Source: Candidatus Ornithocaccomicrobium faecavium | GTDB lineage: Bacteria; Bacillota; Clostridia; Christensenellales; Aristaeellaceae | DNA: 57,688 bases | Direction of reading: 5' to 3' | NCBI GenBank assembly: GCA_018713425.1 | Contig: DVOT01000246.1 | Span: 1 to 57,688 of the forward strand | Shown: positions 10,569 through 51,743 of the stretch, in pieces | How positions within the stretch are numbered: position 1 is the stretch's first letter | Layout: every line of letters begins with the position of its first letter | Made by a program: the position numbers and the translations under genes | Notes under the pieces: generated by a model | What the model was told of the DNA's origin: nothing | Database searches by the model: none | The model's input: the letters and a program-made list of their open reading frames with translations, nothing else

Positions 10569-12139
10569 CTAGTTTTTTGGAACTTTCGGATAGATTTCAA
10601 GCTGCATTTTTTGGCCTAATTCCTTTACGCGCCCGCATTTTTCACTTTTTATGTAAACCACTTTTTCAATCACGCTTTTCAGCATCACATTTTTCCCCGC
10701 TGGCGTTTGAGCTTTTTCGTACAGCGCCAGTACATCGCGTATTTTTGGGGCCTGCATCCTGATCGCTTCATTCATCGGCGGGTTTTTATTTTCCAGCGCC
10801 GCGAGCGCCACCTTTGCAGCTTCCGCGCGTTCGGTTAGGATTTGTTCGCGTTCCAGATATGTTACAGGGCTATAAACACCTTGTTCCAGCAGATCGCGCA
10901 GACGGTTTAACTGATTCCCGATGGTTTCCAGTTCCTTTTCCAGCGCCGCTCGCATCCCGTCGCTTTCATGAACATCCTCGGGCTGCGCTTCAATCCGTTC
11001 TGCATCGATTTCATTAACCCATTGTTTCAATGTTTCCAAAATCGCGGATTCTACCGATTTCAAATATGCGCCGGAAGATTCGCAGTATTGATTCGGGCAC
11101 ATTAGCAAATCGTGATCGCTTGTGTATTTATTCCGCTGCATATGCAGCGACGCACCGCACATGCCGCACACCACGATTCCGGCTAGCGGATTTACCAGCG
11201 GCACTCTTCGCGGATTCCTGCATTTTCTGTTTTGCAAAATTTCCTGCTGAACAGATTCAAACATTTTTTCACTTATAATCGCTTCATGCCGTCCGTCGCA
11301 AATGATTTGCTGCCCGTTGTAGCGGTTAACCCTTTTCCGTTCGCCATTTTTGATTTCCGTTTCCGTGGAATGCCTACCCCACGTGACTTTACCGGTGTAC
11401 ACGGGATTTTTTAGCATCTGCAATATTGTTTCCGCGCCCCACTTTGATTTTTCCCTGGGCCGGATTCCCATTTCCGTTAGGCGCGCGGCGATTTTCGAGC
11501 AGCCCAATTCCTCGCCATTTTCTCCGCGTAAATACCATTCAAAGATCTGCCGCACCACCGCAGCTTCTTCCAGCGCGATTTCAAGCATCCAGCCCTTTTC
11601 GTTTTCCAGCTTTTTCCGCTTGTACCCGTACGGCGGTTTGCTGCCGATATACAACCCTGCCAGCACGCTGGAAATCCTGCCCGTCTGCATGCGGCGCTTG
11701 ATTTGTGCGTATTCCCTGCGCGCGAAAAACAGTTTCAATTCAAAAAATTCCTCGTCGCTGGGGTCGGCGGGGTCGTAGGTTTTGTATGGCGTGATGATTT
11801 TTGTGCCGCTATATGCAATCGTCTGCATGATGATGCCCTGATCGATGCTGTGTCCCCACGCGCCAGCCTATCAACATCCACGCACAGGATTGCGCCATAT
11901 ATGCCAGCTTCTACCGCGCGCAACAGGCGCTGCATTTCTGGCCGCGCAGAAATTGTATCGCCAGATACGATTTCGCGGTAAATATCCTTATCAGCGATTA
12001 CGATTTTCATTTTTTTCGCCAGAGCCATCAACGTATCAAAATGGCGCGACAACGTCGCGCCCTGCCCCATTTTTTCCGCTTCCACATCCGCCCGCGAGCG
12101 GCGGATATACATCGCGCATCGCATTTTGTTCCACCCCAT
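10569..12139 (-). pseudogene. large serine recombinase, interrupted by a frameshift near 11847-11853
   Basis: The N-terminal resolvase domain (YIRRSRADVEAE...VDVDRLARGD) is in one frame. The recombinase and zinc-ribbon domains (IDQGIIMQTIAYSGTKIITP...CGMCGASL) are in another. The frames join if one nucleotide is added in ggggacaCAGCatcgat. Confidence 0.75.
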
Positions 12140-17921: not shown

Positions 17922-18014
17922 TCACTTCCTCCCGTTTGCCGATAGCAGTGCCGCCATCAGAATACCTGCAAATATGCAGACAGGGATAATCCAAATCAGA
18001 TGCAGCGCGTTCAT
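17922..18014 (-). CDS. 30-aa single-TM micro-protein
   Basis: The ATG overlaps the upstream stop (ATGA). Sequence MNALHLIWIIPVCIFAGILMAALLSANGRK. Confidence 0.4.
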   Translation of the reverse strand: MNALHLIWIIPVCIFAGILMAALLSANGRK

Positions 18015-18424
18015 GGCGCGAATTCCTCTGCCTCTGCGTCTGCTGCCTCGCTGCCCGGCGCGCTCGGCCAGACGATGCTGAAGGGGAATCCGTCCTGTTC
18101 CGGCAGGTTTCTGAGCGCCTGCCGGTACTGCGCCCATTCGCCGATCAGCGCCTCGCCCAGGGCCTTGAGAAAGCCCAGCCAGGCGGTAAAAGTGCTCCCA
18201 CTCGGCGCAACCAGCCCCAGCCGGTCGAGCGCGACTTCCGCGTCGCTGTCTTTCAGCAGGCGGTTGCGGATGCTGCGCGCCAGCGCGGCGGCGGTCTCTT
18301 CGTCCTGGGCTTCGATCGCCAGGTTCAGCGCCACGCGCTGCACGTCGGGCATTTCGGAGCGCTGCCGGTCGGCGATGGCCTCCATGCGGGCCTGGCGCAG
18401 GCTGTCGTTCGTCGTGATGCTCAT
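18011..18424 (-). CDS. hypothetical phage protein (possible fibre chaperone, XkdW-like position)
   Basis: AAGGAGGG then ATG 18424. The start overlaps the RT stop. Acidic C-terminus. Confidence 0.55.
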   Translation of the reverse strand: MSITTNDSLRQARMEAIADRQRSEMPDVQRVALNLAIEAQDEETAAALARSIRNRLLKDSDAEVALDRLGLVAPSGSTFTAWLGFLKALGEALIGEWAQYRQALRNLPEQDGFPFSIVWPSAPGSEAADAEAEEFAP

Positions 18425-19758
18425 TGTATCCCTCCTTTGATGTCGTCGAGGATCGCCGCGAACCATTTATCCATGCTCCGCAGCAGTTCGCGGGTATTCC
18501 CGCACGCCATGTGCGCGCGCCATCCGGCATAGTGGCGGCGCAGGCTGTCAAGGTCGGCGTTACCCGCTGCCACTCGCCGGCCCATGCGCTTCAGCCGGCG
18601 CTTTTCAGCGGCGGCAATGCCCGGCGCGGCCCGCAAAATCACCTTGCCCGTGGGCGTCAGCCGGAAATGCCAGCGCAGGAAAATGAATCCCTTGCGCAGC
18701 CGGATGAATTGCGATTTCGGGTTTAATTCCAGCCCCAGCGCGTCGAGGCGTTCAGCGATGCCGCGCACGGCGCGCCGCAGTCTTTCGGGATCGGGGTCGT
18801 AAAGGATAAAGTCGTCCATGTAGCGCGCATACACGGCGACGCGCGCTTCTTCCTTTGCGTAGTGATCCACGGCGTTCAGTTGCGCAAGCTGTACCAGTTG
18901 CGATATTTGGCTGCCCAGTCCGATGCCGCGGCCATCGCCATGCAGCGCTTCGTCCATGATGGCGGCCCGATCTTCCTGCGAAAGCCCCGGCGTGCGGCGT
19001 ACTGCCTGCGCGATTTGCCGCTCGCGTTCGCGCAGGATTCCGTCGCGCTCGCCTTCCGGGCGCAGCGGCAGGCTTTCCCGCTCGACGCGGGCGTCGGTGA
19101 TCGCTCTGGCGGCTTTTGCGGCGGCAGGCGTCGGCGCGCCCACGGCGATCAGGCGCGCTTCCCACCATTCTTCGCCGAAACTCTCCACTACGGCGCAGAA
19201 GAACGCCGCCAGCCGGTCGCTGGCCACAGCCTTGCGCAGCGTCGCCTTGGCGACGCTGAAGCGGCTTGTGGGGAAATACTTGCGAACGTCTCCCTTGTAG
19301 ATGAGCGCATCGGCTTGAAACGGGCCGACGTCTTCGACGCGGCAGCCTGCCGCCCGCGCGCGTTCCCGGCGCTGGGCGCGATAGACGCGCCGCAGCCAGT
19401 ATTTCATCCGCTCAATGGCGAAGTCCACGCCTTTGCCGATCTGGCAAGCGCCGTTGTCATGGATGAAGGATCGCGTCAGGATCGGGTAAAGAATATTGTC
19501 GCACGCGCTGCGCTGCGCATGGCGGTCGCGGATGCGCGTTGCCGTGATCGACCGCGGCTTGGGCCGGGTGATGGAAAAGCGCATGTAACGCTGTATTTTG
19601 TAGCGCCCGGCCTTCAGATCGGCGCGCAGACGGGCGCTGTTTTCCAGCCCGTCGCTACGGTAGACGGCGGTTCCGTCCTTCCACATGGTGCCAGCGCAGC
19701 ACTTCTTCAGCGCCCGGTACAGGTTGCGCAGCTTAATCGCTTCCTCGAATTGATCCAT
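18421..19758 (-). CDS. DGR reverse transcriptase
   Basis: GIGLGSQISQL (DGR-type [ILV]GxxxSQ motif), YMDDF catalytic motif, GDVRKYFPT and CQIGKG. Probable start ATG 19758 (MDQFEEAIKLRNLY). The ORF is open to 19881. Confidence 0.85.
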   Translation of the reverse strand: MDQFEEAIKLRNLYRALKKCCAGTMWKDGTAVYRSDGLENSARLRADLKAGRYKIQRYMRFSITRPKPRSITATRIRDRHAQRSACDNILYPILTRSFIHDNGACQIGKGVDFAIERMKYWLRRVYRAQRRERARAAGCRVEDVGPFQADALIYKGDVRKYFPTSRFSVAKATLRKAVASDRLAAFFCAVVESFGEEWWEARLIAVGAPTPAAAKAARAITDARVERESLPLRPEGERDGILRERERQIAQAVRRTPGLSQEDRAAIMDEALHGDGRGIGLGSQISQLVQLAQLNAVDHYAKEEARVAVYARYMDDFILYDPDPERLRRAVRGIAERLDALGLELNPKSQFIRLRKGFIFLRWHFRLTPTGKVILRAAPGIAAAEKRRLKRMGRRVAAGNADLDSLRRHYAGWRAHMACGNTRELLRSMDKWFAAILDDIKGGIQ

Positions 19759-19941
19759 AAAAAGGCCGCCGTGATAGCGGGAACGCGCCTTGCAGCGCGC
19801 CCGCATCGGCGGCAGTTGTTCCCCCTTTTCTCGGGGCAGGGCAAACGCCTCCTTGCACTTCGCGGCGCTGTTTTCGGGCATTGCTCTGCATTTGTCAAAA
19901 GCATCTTGGCGAATGCCTTACTCGAATGACGGGCCATTGAA

Positions 19942-20066
19942 GCAAGCCGCCGCCAGCCCGTACCCGTTGTTCGCGTTGTTGTTATTCAAAGCCCCCGAAG
20001 GGTTCACGTTGCGAACGTTGTTGGCGTTCCACGGGTTAGGCGACCGCAGCCACCAGTAACGGGCGG
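19942..20066 (-). repeat. DGR template repeat (TR)
   Basis: 125 bp matching VR except at 12 positions. All 12 are A in TR on the minus strand. Contains the run AAT AAC AAC AAC GCG AAC AAC. Confidence 0.9.
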
Positions 20067-20093
20067 GGACAGACAGGCGTTTCCCTGTTCTCA

Positions 20094-20672
20094 TTATGGG
20101 GCCATGCCCGCGCCTCTGGGCGGTTTGGCTGGCCCGCGATCGGGACTTCGGCCGGCGGCGCGCTTGGCGTCGCTGGCCATCAGCCCTTCAATGAGACCTT
20201 TTTCGCGCACGGCCATGTCGAAGAAAATTTCAAAGATGCGGTCGATGTCGTCCTGTGACAAGACCTTGCGGCCGCCGCGGTGCTTGCGCTTGTGCGGCGT
20301 GGCGGTGGACTGCTGCGGCGCTTCGACCGACGGTGACGCCTGCTTCACCGCGTTAAAGCCGCGAAGCATCATTTCGTATTTGATGCTCAACAGCACCTTC
20401 ATTTCCGTCAGGTGGTCGAGCGCGCGGCGCAGCAGCGCTTCGCGCTCCGCAAACTGGGCGGGATCGGCAAGATCGCGCCGTGCGTTCGCCTGTTTCGCGC
20501 AGGTCAGCACGCCTTTCGCCGCCGTCCACAGATCGCCGGTCACGATCCAGCGCTCGCGCCGCGTAAAAAGCCGTTCGTCCTTGCACCATTTCAACGTCCA
20601 CGCCGCCAGTCTTGTGGCCAGCGTGATGTATTCGGCTTTGCTGGCCTGCCGCAAATATGCGGGTACCGCCAT
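20094..20672 (-). CDS. accessory variability determinant-like protein (Avd position), with extra C-terminal region
   Basis: Lies between the target gene and TR. The first ~110 aa are helical and basic. Assignment is by position rather than by motif. Confidence 0.45.
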   Translation of the reverse strand: MAVPAYLRQASKAEYITLATRLAAWTLKWCKDERLFTRRERWIVTGDLWTAAKGVLTCAKQANARRDLADPAQFAEREALLRRALDHLTEMKVLLSIKYEMMLRGFNAVKQASPSVEAPQQSTATPHKRKHRGGRKVLSQDDIDRIFEIFFDMAVREKGLIEGLMASDAKRAAGRSPDRGPAKPPRGAGMAP

Positions 20673-20723
20673 ATCGTTGCCCCCTTGACGCGCCTATCGG
20701 CGCGGATGGTCGATGGGCTGCAT

Positions 20724-20746
20724 CTGTGCGCGGCCGTAACGCACAG
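20724..20746. promoter_or_regulatory. hairpin immediately 3' of the target gene/VR
   Basis: 7-bp inverted repeat ctgtgcg / cgcacag with a 9-nt loop. Lies 13-35 nt beyond the stop codon (20759-20761). Confidence 0.4.
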
Positions 20747-20758
20747 TGCGGCCCGGTA

Positions 20759-21967
20759 TCAGTAGATGACGCAAGCCGCCGCCAGCCCGTACCCGCCGCT
20801 CGCGTCGCCGCCATTCAAAGCCCCCGAAGGGTTCACGTAGCGAACGTTGCTGGCGCTCCACGGGTAAGGCGACCGCAGCCACCAGTAACGGGCGGTTGTC
20901 GGGCTTGCGATGTCGTATTTGATCTTGTCGGTTTCGCTGGCCCCGTCGTAGTAGGGCAGCACGCTGCCTTCGCTGATGCTGTTTTCGGGGCCATAGCCCA
21001 TTTCAACGCGGCTGGGCAGCCAAAAGCGGTCGCGCGTGGTGTAGGTGCCCGTGATCGTGCCGTTTACGTCGTAGACGGTGTTGTAGGCCGTCACGTTGTC
21101 CACGGGGCCGACGGCGGCAAGAAAATCCGCGTCCAGCCCGTTCAGGAAGCCGGGCTGGTTGGCGTAGTTCGGTTTCAGGTCAAAGATGGTCTGTTTTGTC
21201 CACCATGCGTTCGCGGCCGCGTCGCTGTTGAGCCACTGCCGGGCCGCGCTCTCGCCCCAGTGGTTCGAACCGTAGGCGCGGCGCATGACGGAATTAAACT
21301 TGCCTACCGTGTCCACGATGTCGCCCTGCGCGTTGCTGGCCGTGCCCAAGCTGGTGCCGCCGCTCCCGGCAGTGACGGTCAGGTTGCCTTCGATCTGGTT
21401 GCCGCTTGCATCGTAGGTCGTCACGACGCCGGACGTGATGTTCTCCGGCTTGTAGTTCGCCGTGTCTTCGTACCAGTTGCCGACCTTGTTGTGCGTCCAT
21501 CCGCCGCCGGCGGGGATCGGCTCGGTGGTCGTAAATTGATAGGTACCGTCTTCTTCTGTCCGTCCGCTGTTGCCGCCCTTGTACAGCGTGAAGTTGTACG
21601 TTCCCGCGGGCAGGGCGCTTTCGCCCGTGTTGGCCCACAGCATTTCCGAAGCGTCGATCATGCGCCCGTAGATGCAGGCGTGCATCAACAACGTCATGGT
21701 GGGTGCGCTGTCGTCGCCCGGCTTTTTGTGCTGGTTGTGGGCTACGACGTCCCATTCAATGGATGTGTAGGACGAATGGGCGGACGTCAGGCGCGCGCCC
21801 ACGGGGAACGCCTTCGGCCCCAGCCCGTTGCGCACGATCTGCTGCACGGATTCCCAGCTTTCGATGTTCGCCGCGCTGCCCGCCTGCGCGATGGCAATCA
21901 GCCCCAGCGCGTCGGCGATCCGCCGGCCCGTTTCGTCTAAGATGATCGGTTTTGTGATTTCGCTCAT
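20759..21967 (-). CDS. DGR target protein, probable receptor-binding tail fibre/tip protein
   Basis: AGGAGGAGG then ATG 21967, overlapping the upstream stop (ATGA). 402 aa with the VR at the extreme C-terminus. The upstream 278 aa of ORF 20759..22801 is an Arg/Gly-rich artefact. Confidence 0.8.
   Translation of the reverse strand: MSEITKPIILDETGRRIADALGLIAIAQAGSAANIESWESVQQIVRNGLGPKAFPVGARLTSAHSSYTSIEWDVVAHNQHKKPGDDSAPTMTLLMHACIYGRMIDASEMLWANTGESALPAGTYNFTLYKGGNSGRTEEDGTYQFTTTEPIPAGGGWTHNKVGNWYEDTANYKPENITSGVVTTYDASGNQIEGNLTVTAGSGGTSLGTASNAQGDIVDTVGKFNSVMRRAYGSNHWGESAARQWLNSDAAANAWWTKQTIFDLKPNYANQPGFLNGLDADFLAAVGPVDNVTAYNTVYDVNGTITGTYTTRDRFWLPSRVEMGYGPENSISEGSVLPYYDGASETDKIKYDIASPTTARYWWLRSPYPWSASNVRYVNPSGALNGGDASGGYGLAAACVIY
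20771..20895 (-). repeat. DGR variable repeat (VR)
   Basis: Last 125 coding nt of the target gene, ending 9 nt (three codons) before the stop codon. Encodes ARYWWLRSPYPWSASNVRYVNPSGALNGGDASGGYGLAAAC. Confidence 0.9.
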
Positions 21968-22740
21968 GTTGCCTCCTCCTGTTCGTTGTAGGTCACGCAC
22001 AGCGCGCCGTCTACCACGCTGATGCCCAGCGCGGCCCGTTCGTTTTCGGCGGCTACGCGCTGCTGTTCCGCGCTCACGCGGCCCTGCTCGGCAGTCACGC
22101 GGCCTTGCTCGGCGGTTGCGCGGTCGGTCTCCGCCTCTACGCGGTCGTCCTCTGCGTTCACGCGGGCAGTCTCCGCCTCTTCGCGGTCGTCCTCGGCATT
22201 CGCGCGGGCGGTCTCCGCGGTCACGCGCCCCTGTTCTGCGGTCACACGCCCCTGTTCGGCGCTCGCGCGGGCGCTTTCGGCGCTGGAAATGTCGTCTTCC
22301 AGCTGCTCCATGCTGGCAATCTGCGCCAGCAGATCGTCCAACGAAGGGATGACGTTGCCCGGGTCGATGATGCTGTCCGTCAGCACGTTTCGCACGGGCA
22401 GGATCAGCGCCGCCAGCGTCACCTTCGCGCCCGTGCTGACAGACAGGCGCAGCACCGCCTTCACGTCGCCTTCCTGCGCATAGCACGCCTGCGCCAGTAC
22501 CACGCTGGCCACGTTGCCGGTCATGCTGCCCTGCACGGCCACGGTGTTGCCGTCCGGCCGCACGAAGTACCCCGTCACGCTGCCGGTGACTTGCGCCGCC
22601 TCGCCGCCGTCCAGCACGGTCACGCGCCATGTGTGGGCGTTGTTGTCCCCGCAAAGCATCAGCGCGTTCGGCCATACCTGCGGGGCCTGCGCGCCGCGTT
22701 GCAGGTCGATTTCCTGCTCGATCAGCCAGTTGTTGGCCAT
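21964..22740 (-). CDS. baseplate upper protein (BppU-like) with coiled-coil repeat stalk
   Basis: The N-terminal domain resembles BppU_N (WRVTVLDGGEA...GYFVRPDG). The C-terminus carries AExxRVxAE octad repeats. Confidence 0.55.
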   Translation of the reverse strand: MANNWLIEQEIDLQRGAQAPQVWPNALMLCGDNNAHTWRVTVLDGGEAAQVTGSVTGYFVRPDGNTVAVQGSMTGNVASVVLAQACYAQEGDVKAVLRLSVSTGAKVTLAALILPVRNVLTDSIIDPGNVIPSLDDLLAQIASMEQLEDDISSAESARASAEQGRVTAEQGRVTAETARANAEDDREEAETARVNAEDDRVEAETDRATAEQGRVTAEQGRVSAEQQRVAAENERAALGISVVDGALCVTYNEQEEAT

Positions 22741-22769: not shown

Positions 22770-25241
22770 CTAGTAGTCGCCGCCGCCCACGCTTTGCACA
22801 AACGCCTGCACGAACAGATTCGCTTCGATGCGCGTCAGCCCGTTGGGCACGATTTCGATTTCATGCCACGTTCCGCGCGTGATCTTGCCGTCGTCGTCCT
22901 TTTCCAGATAGGCAACGATGTCCATCTCGCTGTCCGTCAGCGCGGAAGCGGGCACCACGTTGCCGTCCACCTTCAGCGTCACGCTGCTGGCCGTGTCGCC
23001 CTCGTAGATGCCGTAGACGATCTCATGCGTGTGGTCGGCCAGCGTTAGGTCGTGCGTGTGGGCCGGGATGTTCACACTGTGCGTATGGCTTGGTGTCTCG
23101 AAAACGTGGCTGTGCGCCGGGATGGCGATGTCCTGCGCCGGGATCGTGACCACGCAAACCACGTTGTGCATGTGGCTGAAATTGTGGTAGTGCTGCATGC
23201 TGTGCGTATGCGCGGGAACCGTGTGGGTGTGTTCCATGCCGTGCGTGTGCGCGGCCATGCGGTGGTTGTGTTCGCCGCCCGTCGATGTGCTGCCCCCGCC
23301 CGCGTCGGTCGTATAGATGCGCGAACCGCCGCCGTTGGTGACGGCGTTCCCCGTCAGCCCGCCGCCCGCGGAATTGGTCGTCAGCGATGTGCTGCCGGTA
23401 GTGCCGGTGCCCGAATATCCCGTGTTGCCGCTGATGCTCACATTGTGGGTCGCGTTCGCGCTTACACCGCCCGTTATCGTAGACGTACCCGGATCGCTGA
23501 TGCGGTGATAGTGCCCGTTCGCCAACGAATCGCTGCCGGAAAAACTGTGCCGGTGGCTGGGGCCGCTGTGCGAATGGCTGTCGATGCTGTGCGTATGGCT
23601 GGGGCCGTAATGGAAGTGCCCCATGCCGTGATTGTGGTCGGAAATGGTGTGGCTATGCCCGCCGGCGCTGAGCGTGGTAATCATGCTGTTGCTCGAATCC
23701 GTGGTCAGCAGGCTGCTGTTTCCCGTTTCGCCGCTCCCACCGCTGCCGGTCGTGGACATGGAATCGCCTCCGACGCCCAGCGCGTAGCCGGTGTTGCCGC
23801 TTGTGCTGCCGCTGTGCCCGGACTGTGAAGGCCCCGTCGCCGCCGTGGTGGTGACGACCTTCTGCTCGATCGTCTGCGCATACGCGCCGCCGCTGTTGCT
23901 CGTTCGCTCGCTGCCTCCCCCTGATGAGCTAGTCTGCGTGCTGGCCCCGCCGCTGGACGTGGTGGTGGCCGTCGCGCCGCCCGCTGCCGCGCCCGTCTCA
24001 TAGGCCCGGAAGGCTTCCATCTGCCACGACAGCAGCATTTGATTAATGCGCACGCATCCGCTGGGCACATAAACGCGCATCTTTGCCGGGTGCTGCGCGT
24101 CGGCATTGTCGGCGTACTGCTGACTGTACAGGTTCGTCGCCCCTTGGCTGTACAGTTCGCTGATGCCCATGCGGTCGGCCAGCGTGTTGATGCTGTCCGC
24201 CGCGTCGCGTGGCGCGTTGGCGATGGTGATGTCGATTTCGCCCGGCCTGCCGCGCACGTCGCTTTTGGCGATGGACACGATCCGCGCGTCGAAGTCGATT
24301 CCGTGTTCGCCGTCCAGCACGCGCACCAGCTTGCCGGGCATGTGCTTGTCCCATTCCTGCCCAGTCAGGCGCGTCAGATCGACAGCCGACGCCGTATAGC
24401 TGATATACGGGTTTTTCAGGCGATTCAGCAGCGCGACGCCGCGCGCCTTCAGCGTGGCGGCGTCTTCGATGCGCGTGTCCGCGTAGACGCTGCTCTTCAC
24501 GCCCCACACGTTCTTCGTGTCCGCGTCGATGTAGGGCACGCCGCCGTTGATGTCGCGGATCGTCAGCTGGTTCACGCCCTCGCCGTAGCCCAGCATGTAC
24601 AGCCGCGTCACCAGCGTGCTGGCGTCCATTTCCTTTTCCACCTCGACCATGTTCCGGCGGTAGTGGATGCCGCAGCCGGGCGTGGTGTCCGCGTGCTTCA
24701 GGCTCACCGTCCACGGCGATGCGCTCGTGTCGAACACCCATGTGTATTCGTCCGTCAGCACGTTGCCCAGCGACAGAAGCGCCGAAAGCAGCGACGTGTT
24801 TTCAAACTTGTAGGCAAACTGATCGCTGTATTCGCACTCGCCCAAAACCCAGCGTTCCGTATGCTGCTGGTCGAGAATATACTGGATCACCTGCGCCGTG
24901 GTCACGCCCGGCCCGCCGATCTCATGGTAGCCGAACAGCACGTCGTCCAGCAGCGTGGCCATGACGTGTTCCAAGCTGTACGTCTTCACCCCGCCGGCTG
25001 CCGTCTCTTCGCCGGAAGGCATCCCGATGATGCGATACAGGCCCGTGTCCCGCGCGCCGTCCGGCAGATGCACCAGATTGTGCGCTTGGCACAGGCTGTT
25101 CTTCGGATCACCGCTGGGCAGCGTGAAGGACGCCGTCCACAGGTCATTGTGAACCAGATTGTAGGCGACCTCGCCCGCGTTCTCCAAGACGCCCAGCATC
25201 TCGCCGTCCTGATTGTAGACGGTTACATATTCGCAGTTCAT
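22770..25241 (-). CDS. tail-associated protein (Tal; prophage endopeptidase-tail family N-terminus) with His-rich C-terminal half
   Basis: AGGAGG then ATG 25241. Follows Dit. 17 HxH motifs in two blocks separated by Gly/Ser/Thr linkers. Confidence 0.7.
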   Translation of the reverse strand: MNCEYVTVYNQDGEMLGVLENAGEVAYNLVHNDLWTASFTLPSGDPKNSLCQAHNLVHLPDGARDTGLYRIIGMPSGEETAAGGVKTYSLEHVMATLLDDVLFGYHEIGGPGVTTAQVIQYILDQQHTERWVLGECEYSDQFAYKFENTSLLSALLSLGNVLTDEYTWVFDTSASPWTVSLKHADTTPGCGIHYRRNMVEVEKEMDASTLVTRLYMLGYGEGVNQLTIRDINGGVPYIDADTKNVWGVKSSVYADTRIEDAATLKARGVALLNRLKNPYISYTASAVDLTRLTGQEWDKHMPGKLVRVLDGEHGIDFDARIVSIAKSDVRGRPGEIDITIANAPRDAADSINTLADRMGISELYSQGATNLYSQQYADNADAQHPAKMRVYVPSGCVRINQMLLSWQMEAFRAYETGAAAGGATATTTSSGGASTQTSSSGGGSERTSNSGGAYAQTIEQKVVTTTAATGPSQSGHSGSTSGNTGYALGVGGDSMSTTGSGGSGETGNSSLLTTDSSNSMITTLSAGGHSHTISDHNHGMGHFHYGPSHTHSIDSHSHSGPSHRHSFSGSDSLANGHYHRISDPGTSTITGGVSANATHNVSISGNTGYSGTGTTGSTSLTTNSAGGGLTGNAVTNGGGSRIYTTDAGGGSTSTGGEHNHRMAAHTHGMEHTHTVPAHTHSMQHYHNFSHMHNVVCVVTIPAQDIAIPAHSHVFETPSHTHSVNIPAHTHDLTLADHTHEIVYGIYEGDTASSVTLKVDGNVVPASALTDSEMDIVAYLEKDDDGKITRGTWHEIEIVPNGLTRIEANLFVQAFVQSVGGGDY

Positions 25242-51579: not shown

Positions 51580-51630
51580 ATATTTTGGTCGAGGTGACAG
51601 GATTTGAACCTGCGACCTTTTGGTCCCGAA
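51578..51630. repeat. right att site (inside the intact tRNA-Pro)
   Basis: 53/53 identity with 15312-15364. Confidence 0.9.
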
Positions 51631-51662
51631 CCAAACGCGCTACCAAACTGCGCTACACCTCG
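51586..51662 (-). tRNA. tRNA-Pro (anticodon CGG)
   Basis: Cloverleaf folded by hand. Acceptor CGAGGTG/CACCTCG, D stem GCGC/GCGC, anticodon stem TTTGG/CCAAA, loop TTCGGGA, T arm GCAGG-TTCAAAT-CCTGT, encoded CCA. Confidence 0.9.
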
Positions 51663-51667
51663 AAAAA

Positions 51668-51743
51668 TGGAGCCAATGAAGGGACTCGAACCCTTGACCT
51701 GCGGTTTACGAAACCGCTGCTCTACCGGCTGAGCTACATTGGC
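51668..51743 (-). tRNA. tRNA-Thr (anticodon CGT)
   Basis: Acceptor GCCAATG/CATTGGC, anticodon stem GCGGT/ACCGC, loop TTCGTAA, T arm AAGGG-TTCGAGT-CCCTT, encoded CCA. Confidence 0.9.

Follow-up and report, generated by a model that had tools for sequence, protein, structure and literature searches.

A very probably complete BPP-1-type diversity-generating retroelement with a lectin-like target in a gut prophage of Candidatus Ornithocaccomicrobium faecavium

Introduction

Is the reverse transcriptase (RT) gene on the minus strand of a prophage from Candidatus Ornithocaccomicrobium faecavium (assembly GCA_018713425.1, contig DVOT01000246.1) part of a complete and active diversity-generating retroelement (DGR), and which protein would such an element diversify? 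We addressed this question on the whole available stretch of 57,688 nucleotides (nt), referred to here as the window. The element very likely is a complete DGR of the type known from Bordetella phage BPP-1, with the gene order target-avd-template repeat-RT, in a siphovirus-like prophage of ~36-40 kb. All its parts lie on the minus strand, and coordinates are those of the window.

Results and Discussion

Template and variable repeats

A repeat search of the window returned a single 129-nt direct repeat, with copies at 19938-20066 and 20767-20895 that are 90% identical. The first copy (core 20066-19942) is a non-coding template repeat (TR) containing 27 adenines, 26 of them in the core. The second is the variable repeat (VR; 125-nt core 20895-20771), which encodes residues 359-401 of a 402-residue protein and includes 12 hypervariable codons. 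Read on the minus strand, the 125-nt cores differ at 12 positions, and all 12 are adenines in TR (10 A to G and 2 A to T). With 26 adenines in 125 nt, the chance that 12 random sites all fall on adenine is 5.5e-10. Over the whole 129 nt, 12 of the 13 mismatches are at TR adenines; the remaining one (T to G, 19941/20770) falls in the adenine-free, GC-rich tail of the repeat, 4 nt from the repeat's 3' end. The cognate TR proposed at 20066-19942 by the first-pass annotation, which had been made from the sequence alone, is borne out.

Every one of the 12 core mismatches affects an AAC codon of the reading frame, at its first or second base. In the frame of VR, TR holds 11 AAC, one AAT and two TAC codons, giving a theoretical repertoire of 15^12 x 4^2, or ~2e15 proteins. 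It had been stated earlier that VR makes up the last 125 coding nt of the target gene; VR does lie at the 3' end of this gene, but it stops 5-9 nt short of the last coding base. BLASTN with TR as query detected no second VR within the window. Two-target DGRs have been described for phages nd4, nd12 and Lelie, and one of the distant relatives collected here (L079) is of this kind, with two VRs (658-770 and 1985-2097) matching a single TR.

Natural variation at the predicted codons

More than 1,390 homologues of the 402-residue target were found. Variation was assessed on 43 distinct 402-residue proteins from metagenomes, all close relatives of the window target: three 90%-identity clusters (represented by the window protein and by two representatives 96% identical) and three additional representatives at 93-95%. 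In these proteins, the 12 columns of highest variability were exactly the 12 AAC/AAT codons of TR. Mean entropy was 2.64 bits at these codons and 0.09 bits elsewhere (maximum elsewhere 1.41). The two TAC codons were less variable and mostly changed to Cys, Phe or Ser, as expected for a single-adenine change.

At the DNA level, the locus L003 (an IMG/VR contig 98% identical over 3.5 kb) has an identical TR and a VR with 11 differences, which is about four times the background rate. In the loci L001-L007, which share the accessory gene described below, the substitutions at TR adenines amounted to 15/15, 12/12, 9/10, 15/17, 7/7 and 16/17. Among 75 more distant loci, fetched with an RT alignment, 60 also carry an adenine-biased TR/VR pair. 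The restriction to adenines, whose absence from related genomes would, by the first-pass annotation, have spoken against a DGR, is thus found there as well.

Target-bearing contigs of 35.8-36.5 kb recur in many independent metagenomes. This suggests a phage genome of ~36 kb that is often assembled alone, possibly from free or circular phage DNA.

The target protein and its probable role

The target (402 residues, 20759-21967, minus strand) has a short helix at its N-terminus, followed by a beta-rich body and, at residues 228-400, by a C-terminal, putatively C-type-lectin-like DUF6273 domain. It matches Pfam DUF6273 with an E-value of 7.5e-22 and phrog_19280 with 5.5e-43, and its AlphaFold2 model has a mean predicted local distance difference test score (pLDDT) of 89. 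The ATG at 21967 is supported by homologues and by a good ribosome-binding site. A longer open reading frame (ORF) of 680 residues (22801-20759) was considered as the target gene and rejected; its upstream part is Arg/Gly-rich, out-of-frame and overlaps the neighbouring 258-residue gene. DUF6273 targets of DGRs in gut phages have been modelled as C-type lectins (PMC10743442) and have been described in Faecalibacterium prophages (PMC11792537).

The target was earlier said to follow directly after Dit, Tal and a BppU-like baseplate protein. Dit (phrog_33) and Tal (Prophage_tail) are indeed encoded upstream, but the BppU label found no support in Pfam: the protein in that place is a 258-residue tail-associated protein with heptad repeats (21964-22740, minus strand), which has no Pfam match, to BppU_N or otherwise, and only weak PHROG matches (virion structural, minor tail). 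It is probably a stalk or adaptor for the target. In many homologues of the target, the same head module is joined to an N-terminal stalk, collagen-like or other, that is unrelated to the 258-residue protein. The idea that this protein is the split-off N-terminus of the longer target homologues (600+ residues) was rejected, as the two show no similarity.

Within the 258-residue gene, positions 22088-22282 form a 21-nt tandem repeat that corresponds to the heptads (AEQGRVT, AETARAN, AEDDREE), and the same regions of L001 and L002 also contain 21-nt repeats. This segment probably forms a coiled-coil stalk, whose repeat number may vary between phages.

The order Tal, 258-residue protein, target, Avd, TR, RT and chaperone recurs in relatives. 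From gene order and domain modularity only, we infer that the 402-residue protein is a distal tail-fibre or receptor-binding protein, in which case its diversification would switch tropism.

The strongest competing account accepts a genuine DGR and changes the role of its target. The 402-residue protein would be an accessory adhesin, binding mucus, glycans or immunoglobulins, and the element would tune environmental attachment, not host range. Such a role has been proposed for the Hoc-like 'tentaclin' targets of DGRs. The DUF6273 part of our target does match phrog_10993, 'Hoc-like head decoration', at 1.5e-23; however, this match covers only the shared lectin-like domain, and the 402-residue protein has no Ig-like domains. 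Moreover, DUF6273 targets, some of them Hoc-like, occur in Faecalibacterium and other gut phages (PMC11792537, PMC10743442), and the only solved homologue is a dispensable N-terminal domain of a gut-bacterial IgA protease. The placement of the protein at the tail tip is itself drawn from gene context. Yet this context, from Dit, Tal and the 258-residue protein through the target to the chaperone, is conserved across relatives, and the fusion of the head module to collagen-like stalks in homologues is typical of fibres. We consider the adhesin role unlikely, though a serious contender, and retain the receptor-binding role for the target.

The reverse transcriptase

The RT gene (18421-19758, minus strand) encodes 445 residues and matches phrog_1423 ('reverse transcriptase') at 8.7e-75. 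Both motifs reported earlier, GIGLGSQISQL and YMDDF, were found at these coordinates, as motif 4 (LGSQISQ) and motif 5 (YMDD). They are invariant across an alignment of 32 sequences, the BPP-1, Toutatis and Shimadzu RTs included; the invariant residues of LGxxxSQ are G282, S286 and Q287. The start at 19758 (MDQFEE) is conserved in homologues. An alternative start at 19881, giving 486 residues, was rejected, since its 41-codon extension overlaps the conserved RNA described below and MDQFEE is conserved.

The best match in the PDB is the RT of BPP-1 (bRT, 8ub7). In single-sequence searches it scored 1.3e-23, compared with 2.3e-6 for a group II RT. With the RT family profile, the E-values were 1.4e-26 for bRT, 7.6e-12 for group II, ~1e-6 for RT-Cas1 and ~1e-4 for retron-type enzymes. 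By these scores, the enzyme does not group with group II intron, retron or abortive infection (Abi) RTs. A tblastn search of the phage collection gave 49 records with a best identity of 45.4%, among them phages known to carry DGRs: Faecalibacterium phages Toutatis, Brigit and Lelie, Roseburia phage Shimadzu, and BPP-1, BIP-1 and BMP-1; no record of that collection was a near-DNA match.

Relative to bRT, the window RT has two clade-specific insertions, of ~20 residues before motif 3 and of ~85 residues between motifs 3 and 4 (roughly residues 176-262). The alignment with bRT consists of two stretches that flank the latter.

A divergent accessory protein

Between VR and TR lies a 192-residue ORF (20094-20672, minus strand) with an isoelectric point (pI) of 10.1; reported Avd values are 9.5 +/- 0.7 (PMC5758913). 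On its sequence relationships, this ORF is a divergent, long-loop Avd. The first-pass annotation had described it as a helical, basic ORF in the Avd position. Its basic character, its position and a four-helix model agree with this, but its identity as an Avd could only be reached by a transitive search.

The AlphaFold2 model (pLDDT 75) shows four long helices and, between helices 3 and 4, an insertion of about 33-35 residues (residues 107-139, including KRKHRGGRK) that is basic and disordered, the disordered loop being placed at residues 107-134. The 192-residue length is atypical, the usual being ~130, because of this loop insertion. In Foldseek, the model matched 2gsc in the PDB with a template modelling (TM) score of 0.79 to the Foldseek target, and three BFVD entries named 'Avd-like protein' with TM 0.69-0.72; the E-values of both (0.04-0.05) are not significant. 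A profile of the close family gave only noise against PDB sequences.

The close family comprises 41 homologous clusters, few of which have a named source; where one is given, it is an assembly of Gemmiger or of uncultured Oscillospiraceae. When the family profile was run exhaustively with HMMER over 1.84 billion representatives (E<=1e-3), it returned 165 of them, mostly of 130-145 residues and aligned over helices 1-3. Of these remote matches, 38 were sampled and aligned with the window protein, with P0015 as a close homologue and with the Avds known from BPP-1, Toutatis and Shimadzu, which gives 43 sequences in all. In this alignment, 41/43 members match phrog_3206, 'Avd protein of DGR' (best 5.5e-36), 12/43 match PF22296 (bAvd-like) and 5/43 match PF05635. 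Common motifs are an N-terminal M(S/A)VP, FPKRxRW, ANxI and a C-terminal SDxxR. It is through these phrog_3206, PF22296 and PF05635 members that homology extends to the 192-residue ORF, hence its assignment. The position of the gene between VR and TR is kept in every related locus.

A conserved RNA between TR and RT

The spacer between TR and RT, previously given as ~180 nt, measures 179 nt. Together with the 3' end of TR, the whole of it forms a predicted structured RNA (19753-19950, minus strand) with eight helices. One is a long-range helix in which the TR 3' end (19950-19939) pairs with 19861-19845 in the spacer; two 3' helices occupy 19813-19765.

The comparative evidence comes from a covariance model, R1, built from six close relatives over the last 12 nt of TR and the spacer. 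R1 matched 51/85 sources, in every case on the RT strand and ending near the RT start. Where TR was also found, the match started 1-11 nt (usually 7-9) before the TR end. Across 39 distinct sequences, 90.2% of cells were paired, compared with 41-50% in slid controls; 40 of 49 pairs showed double changes, and the covariation score was 0.41 against 0.07-0.11, all these figures being somewhat inflated because the alignment was fitted to R1 itself. The helix joining TR to the spacer (19943-19939 with 19861-19857) was 98.8% paired, with compensatory changes in four of its five pairs. Single-sequence folding of the spacer RNA and of the region downstream of VR gave z-scores near 0. Such GC-rich sequence folds no better than its shuffles, and therefore only comparative evidence was used. 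In BPP-1, a limited pairing between TR and spacer is needed for cis-priming and sets the priming adenosine, Sp A56, beside TR G117 (PMC6182149), and the surrounding RNA wraps the bRT-Avd complex (bioRxiv 10.1101/2023.10.23.563531).

The window spacer also matches the full Rfam model RT-2 (RF03077) at 19900-19744 with 32.1 bits (E 6.9e-6 on a 451-nt stretch and 5.8e-5 on a 3.8-kb stretch). At the same place, three of the more distant loci pass the gathering score of this model: L062 (46.7), L055 (42) and L052 (40.9 bits). L062 and L052 also have an adenine-biased TR/VR pair. Of the RT motifs, Weinberg et al. (2017) connected RT-10 alone with a DGR, that of BPP-1, and speculated that others serve DGRs as well (PMC5737381). 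In the literature searched, we found no paper linking RT-2 to DGRs. The link between the RT-2 motif and DGR spacers is well supported by the present data.

Target-site signals and activity of the window copy

The 3' end of VR (20767-20789, minus strand) resembles the initiation of mutagenic homing (IMH) site of BPP-1: an adenine-free, GC-rich run, CGGGCTGGCGGCGGC, is followed by TTGCGTCA. Its function is assigned by analogy with BPP-1. The IMH*-like counterpart in TR (19960-19938) is one base apart from it, G vs T at 20770/19941.

Downstream of VR stands a conserved GC-rich hairpin, CGCGCC-GATA-GGCGCG (20689-20704, minus strand), with a 6-bp stem and a G-N-T-A loop. Across the seven related loci that were aligned, the stem never varies, and the loop reads GATA, GGTA or GTTA. 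The hairpin resembles those described for phage DGR targets, with a GC stem of 7-10 bp, a GRNA tetraloop and a distance of 4-34 nt from VR, which promote homing in BPP-1 (PMC3240598). The GTTA loop, found in one relative, departs from GRNA. In relatives, 10-14 nt separate the stop codon from the hairpin. The window and L003 have it ~62 nt from VR because of a lineage-specific insertion of ~44 nt (20714-20757, minus strand) between the target stop codon and the hairpin, which is absent from L001, L002 and L005-L007. The insertion carries a 7-bp inverted repeat (CTGTGCG...CGCACAG) and could be a small mobile or terminator-like element.

Several results speak against a complete and active element and must be weighed. 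The hairpin stem is 1 bp under the described range and its ~62-nt distance from VR exceeds 4-34 nt. The 192-residue ORF gave no direct Avd profile match in Pfam, PHROG, NCBIfam (at lenient E-values too) or PADLOC; hhalign was null against bAvd and non-significant against the Avds of Shimadzu (E 0.0025, 12% probability) and Toutatis. Whole-chain Foldseek of the target returned neither Mtd nor TvpA, and C-type lectins only as short, weak matches. No obvious Shine-Dalgarno sequence was seen before the RT start at 19758, and the RT-2 score of the window is below the gathering score (32.1 vs 40 bits). Several relatives carry decayed DGRs, so that loss of function seems common in this phage group. 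Finally, the activity of the window copy is deduced from variation between related genomes.

The forms of decay differ between loci. L008 (6001-6982) keeps target and Avd and has lost TR and RT residues 1-312. In P0036 and P0038-P0040, Avd residues 1-70 are fused in-frame to RT from residue 263. The RT of L005 (6857-7960) lacks residues 123-225.

These points bear on a second alternative, that the window copy is a recently inactivated relic whose VR differences record past activity, with the 44-nt insertion, which moved the hairpin, as a possible cause. The unusual hairpin distance fits this view, as does the frequency of decayed DGRs among relatives (L008, P0036-P0040, L005). However, all parts in the window are intact, including the ORFs, catalytic motifs, TR, RNA and hairpin. 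In L003, which has the same insertion, TR is unchanged while VR shows 11 differences, about four times the background divergence; this argues that diversification continued after the insertion. In BPP-1, moreover, the distance between VR and hairpin alters the efficiency of homing and not the integration site (PMC3240598). We regard the relic as improbable; very probably, judging from its sequence and that of its relatives, the window DGR is complete and active.

An ordinary duplication beside an unrelated RT (of a group II intron, a retron, or an Abi or defence-associated RT (DRT) system) can be dismissed with near certainty: the NCBIfam and PADLOC matches to group II and DRT models that might suggest it are partial, far below the family cut-offs and confined to motifs 4-7 of the conserved palm, bRT is the best solved relative by ~15 orders of magnitude, no intron RNA domains, maturase or endonuclease domain, or retron msr/msd were found, and the adenine-only mismatches in the window and in dozens of relatives already refute it.

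Proposed mechanism

The following scheme takes cis-priming, formation of an RT-Avd-RNA complex and the homing steps from BPP-1 biochemistry. TR and its 3' spacer would be transcribed together, and the spacer would then fold into the conserved multi-helix RNA, one helix of which pairs the adenine-free 3' end of TR with the spacer. The RT and the divergent, highly basic Avd would bind this spacer RNA. Cis-primed cDNA synthesis would copy TR, with random incorporation opposite adenines only. The cDNA would replace VR, anchored by the GC-rich IMH-like 3' end and aided by the downstream GC hairpin with its GNTA loop. As a result, 12 Asn codons, and less often two Tyr codons, would be rewritten in the C-type-lectin-like tip of the 402-residue protein. 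The anatomy of the element, the adenine-only pattern, the RT and Avd family relationships, the RNA covariation and the hypervariability at exactly the predicted codons are direct observations.

The clade with a long RT and a long-loop Avd may have a ribonucleoprotein architecture unlike that of BPP-1, in which the ~85-residue RT insertion and the basic Avd loop provide co-adapted contacts for an RT-2-class spacer RNA. RT length correlates with the distance from VR to TR, used as a proxy for Avd length, with a Spearman rho of 0.56 (49 loci among L016-L090 plus the window), a value confounded by phylogeny. Loci with an RT of at least 410 residues mostly have a VR-TR gap of 635-725 nt, with L017 as an exception. 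Because this correlation is loose and confounded, co-adaptation is speculative, and we put it forward as a doubtful but tenable proposal. If it were true, a large group of gut-phage DGRs would use the orphan Rfam motif RT-2 as cis-priming RNA.

The significance of the element lies first in its natural setting: in a common gut prophage of ~36 kb that has been assembled repeatedly, a DGR visibly diversifies a tail-fibre-like, putatively lectin-like domain in natural populations. The analysis has also yielded three by-products. The first is a rule for annotating a divergent family of Avds that escapes the current profiles of Pfam, PHROG and NCBIfam. The second is the placement of the orphan RT-2 motif in the TR-RT spacer of DGRs, with covariation supporting the pairing between TR and spacer. 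The third is a test case offered by nature: the putative homing hairpin is shifted by ~44 nt with no obvious loss of diversification.

Prophage context

Several neighbouring genes complete the picture. A tail-fibre assembly chaperone gene (18011-18466, minus strand) overlaps the RT gene by 46 nt and is mentioned as context only; its product matches Phage_tail_APC (9e-13) and several PHROG tail-fibre-assembly families. An endolysin gene follows downstream. Between the chaperone gene and a 55-residue ORF next to the endolysin, a 30-residue ORF tail, MNALHLIWIIPVCIFAGILMAALLSANGRK (17922-18014, minus strand), is predicted to form one hydrophobic helix and could be a small holin-like protein missed by ORF callers; the 55-residue ORF (17918-17751) has no membrane segment. 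Upstream, the C-terminal half of the lysin-like Tal (22770-25241) is very rich in His-x-His or HTH-type repeats over roughly residues 520-760, for example HSHTISDHNHGMGHFHYGPSHTHSIDSHSHSGPSHRHS. In L001 (157-410), the Tal repeats take the form of 27-nt tandem repeats. The His-rich repeats may bind metal.

Elsewhere, the prophage encodes a tape measure protein, TerL, a ClpP-type protease and a serine recombinase (10569-11828). It is flanked by GGDEF and GH2 genes and by tRNA-Pro and tRNA-Thr (51586-51743). Judged by related loci in metagenome-assembled genomes, the host is a gut bacterium resembling Gemmiger, Faecalibacterium and other Oscillospiraceae.

Comparison with known systems

The claim of the first-pass annotation that this is the canonical BPP-1 layout stands when compared with the annotated BPP-1 record (mtd-avd-TR-brt), and the layout corresponds to architecture B1 of Wu et al. 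(PMC5758913). The two elements share the order and strand of all parts, a target gene with VR at its 3' end and a variable domain of C-type-lectin type, predicted as such for the window, and TR-to-VR differences restricted to adenines in AAC codons. In both, the IMH-like end is GC-rich and free of adenine, VR is followed by a GC hairpin with a loop of 4 nt, Avd is basic, the spacer RNA is structured and pairs with the 3' end of TR, and the RT has LGxxxSQ and YMDD. In both cases the cassette adjoins tail-fibre and lysis genes. They differ in several respects. The RTs are ~32% identical, the window enzyme having ~105 extra residues in two insertions. The window Avd has 192 residues (128 in BPP-1) with a basic loop insertion and is missed by PF22296. 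The window target is a DUF6273 protein and not Mtd, with no Mtd match in Foldseek. The spacer RNA is RT-2-like in the window and RT-10 in BPP-1 (PMC5737381). The window hairpin lies ~62 nt from VR, and the window host is a Gram-positive gut anaerobe.

Closer in target type are the DGRs of the Faecalibacterium phages and prophages Lelie, Roos, Pioen, CP11, FP_Toutatis and FP_Brigit and of Roseburia phage Shimadzu, whose hosts, Oscillospiraceae and Lachnospiraceae of the human gut, belong to the same host group. As in the window, their targets are DUF6273 proteins with VR at the C-terminus of the domain (PMC11792537). Their RTs are 30-38% identical to the window RT, and their Avds are likewise missed by Pfam; that of Shimadzu aligns in the window Avd family. 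There is, however, no near-DNA match to any phage record, and RT identity within the phage collection peaks at 45%. Unlike the window, Toutatis has the order avd-TR-RT-target and a Hoc-like target. The long RT and long-loop Avd set the window clade apart from this whole group.

Two further comparisons concern single components. Rfam RT-2 (RF03077), described by Weinberg et al. (2017) as an orphan motif beside RT genes, matches within the TR-RT spacer of the window, but the Rfam model lacks the 5' part that pairs with the 3' end of TR. The N-terminal domain carried by Thomasclavelia ramosa's IgA protease (PDB 9qa6) is the only solved DUF6273 homologue (Foldseek E 1e-8, profile E 2.7e-7) and shares with the window target the WLR[ST]P core motif and a C-type-lectin-like core; the authors of the structure call it an enlarged C-type-lectin-like domain (PMC12237041). 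In contrast to the window target, it belongs to a bacterial surface enzyme, has no phage or DGR link, contains a structural zinc site and is dispensable in the protease.

Altogether, the window DGR is canonical, another example of a known system and not a new kind. DGRs with DUF6273 targets have already been published from Faecalibacterium-type prophages, and the element therefore brings no conceptual advance. Four points go beyond routine annotation: Avd is divergent, with a long loop, and missed by profiles; the RT is long; the RT-2 motif can be assigned to DGR spacers; and the putative homing hairpin is displaced.

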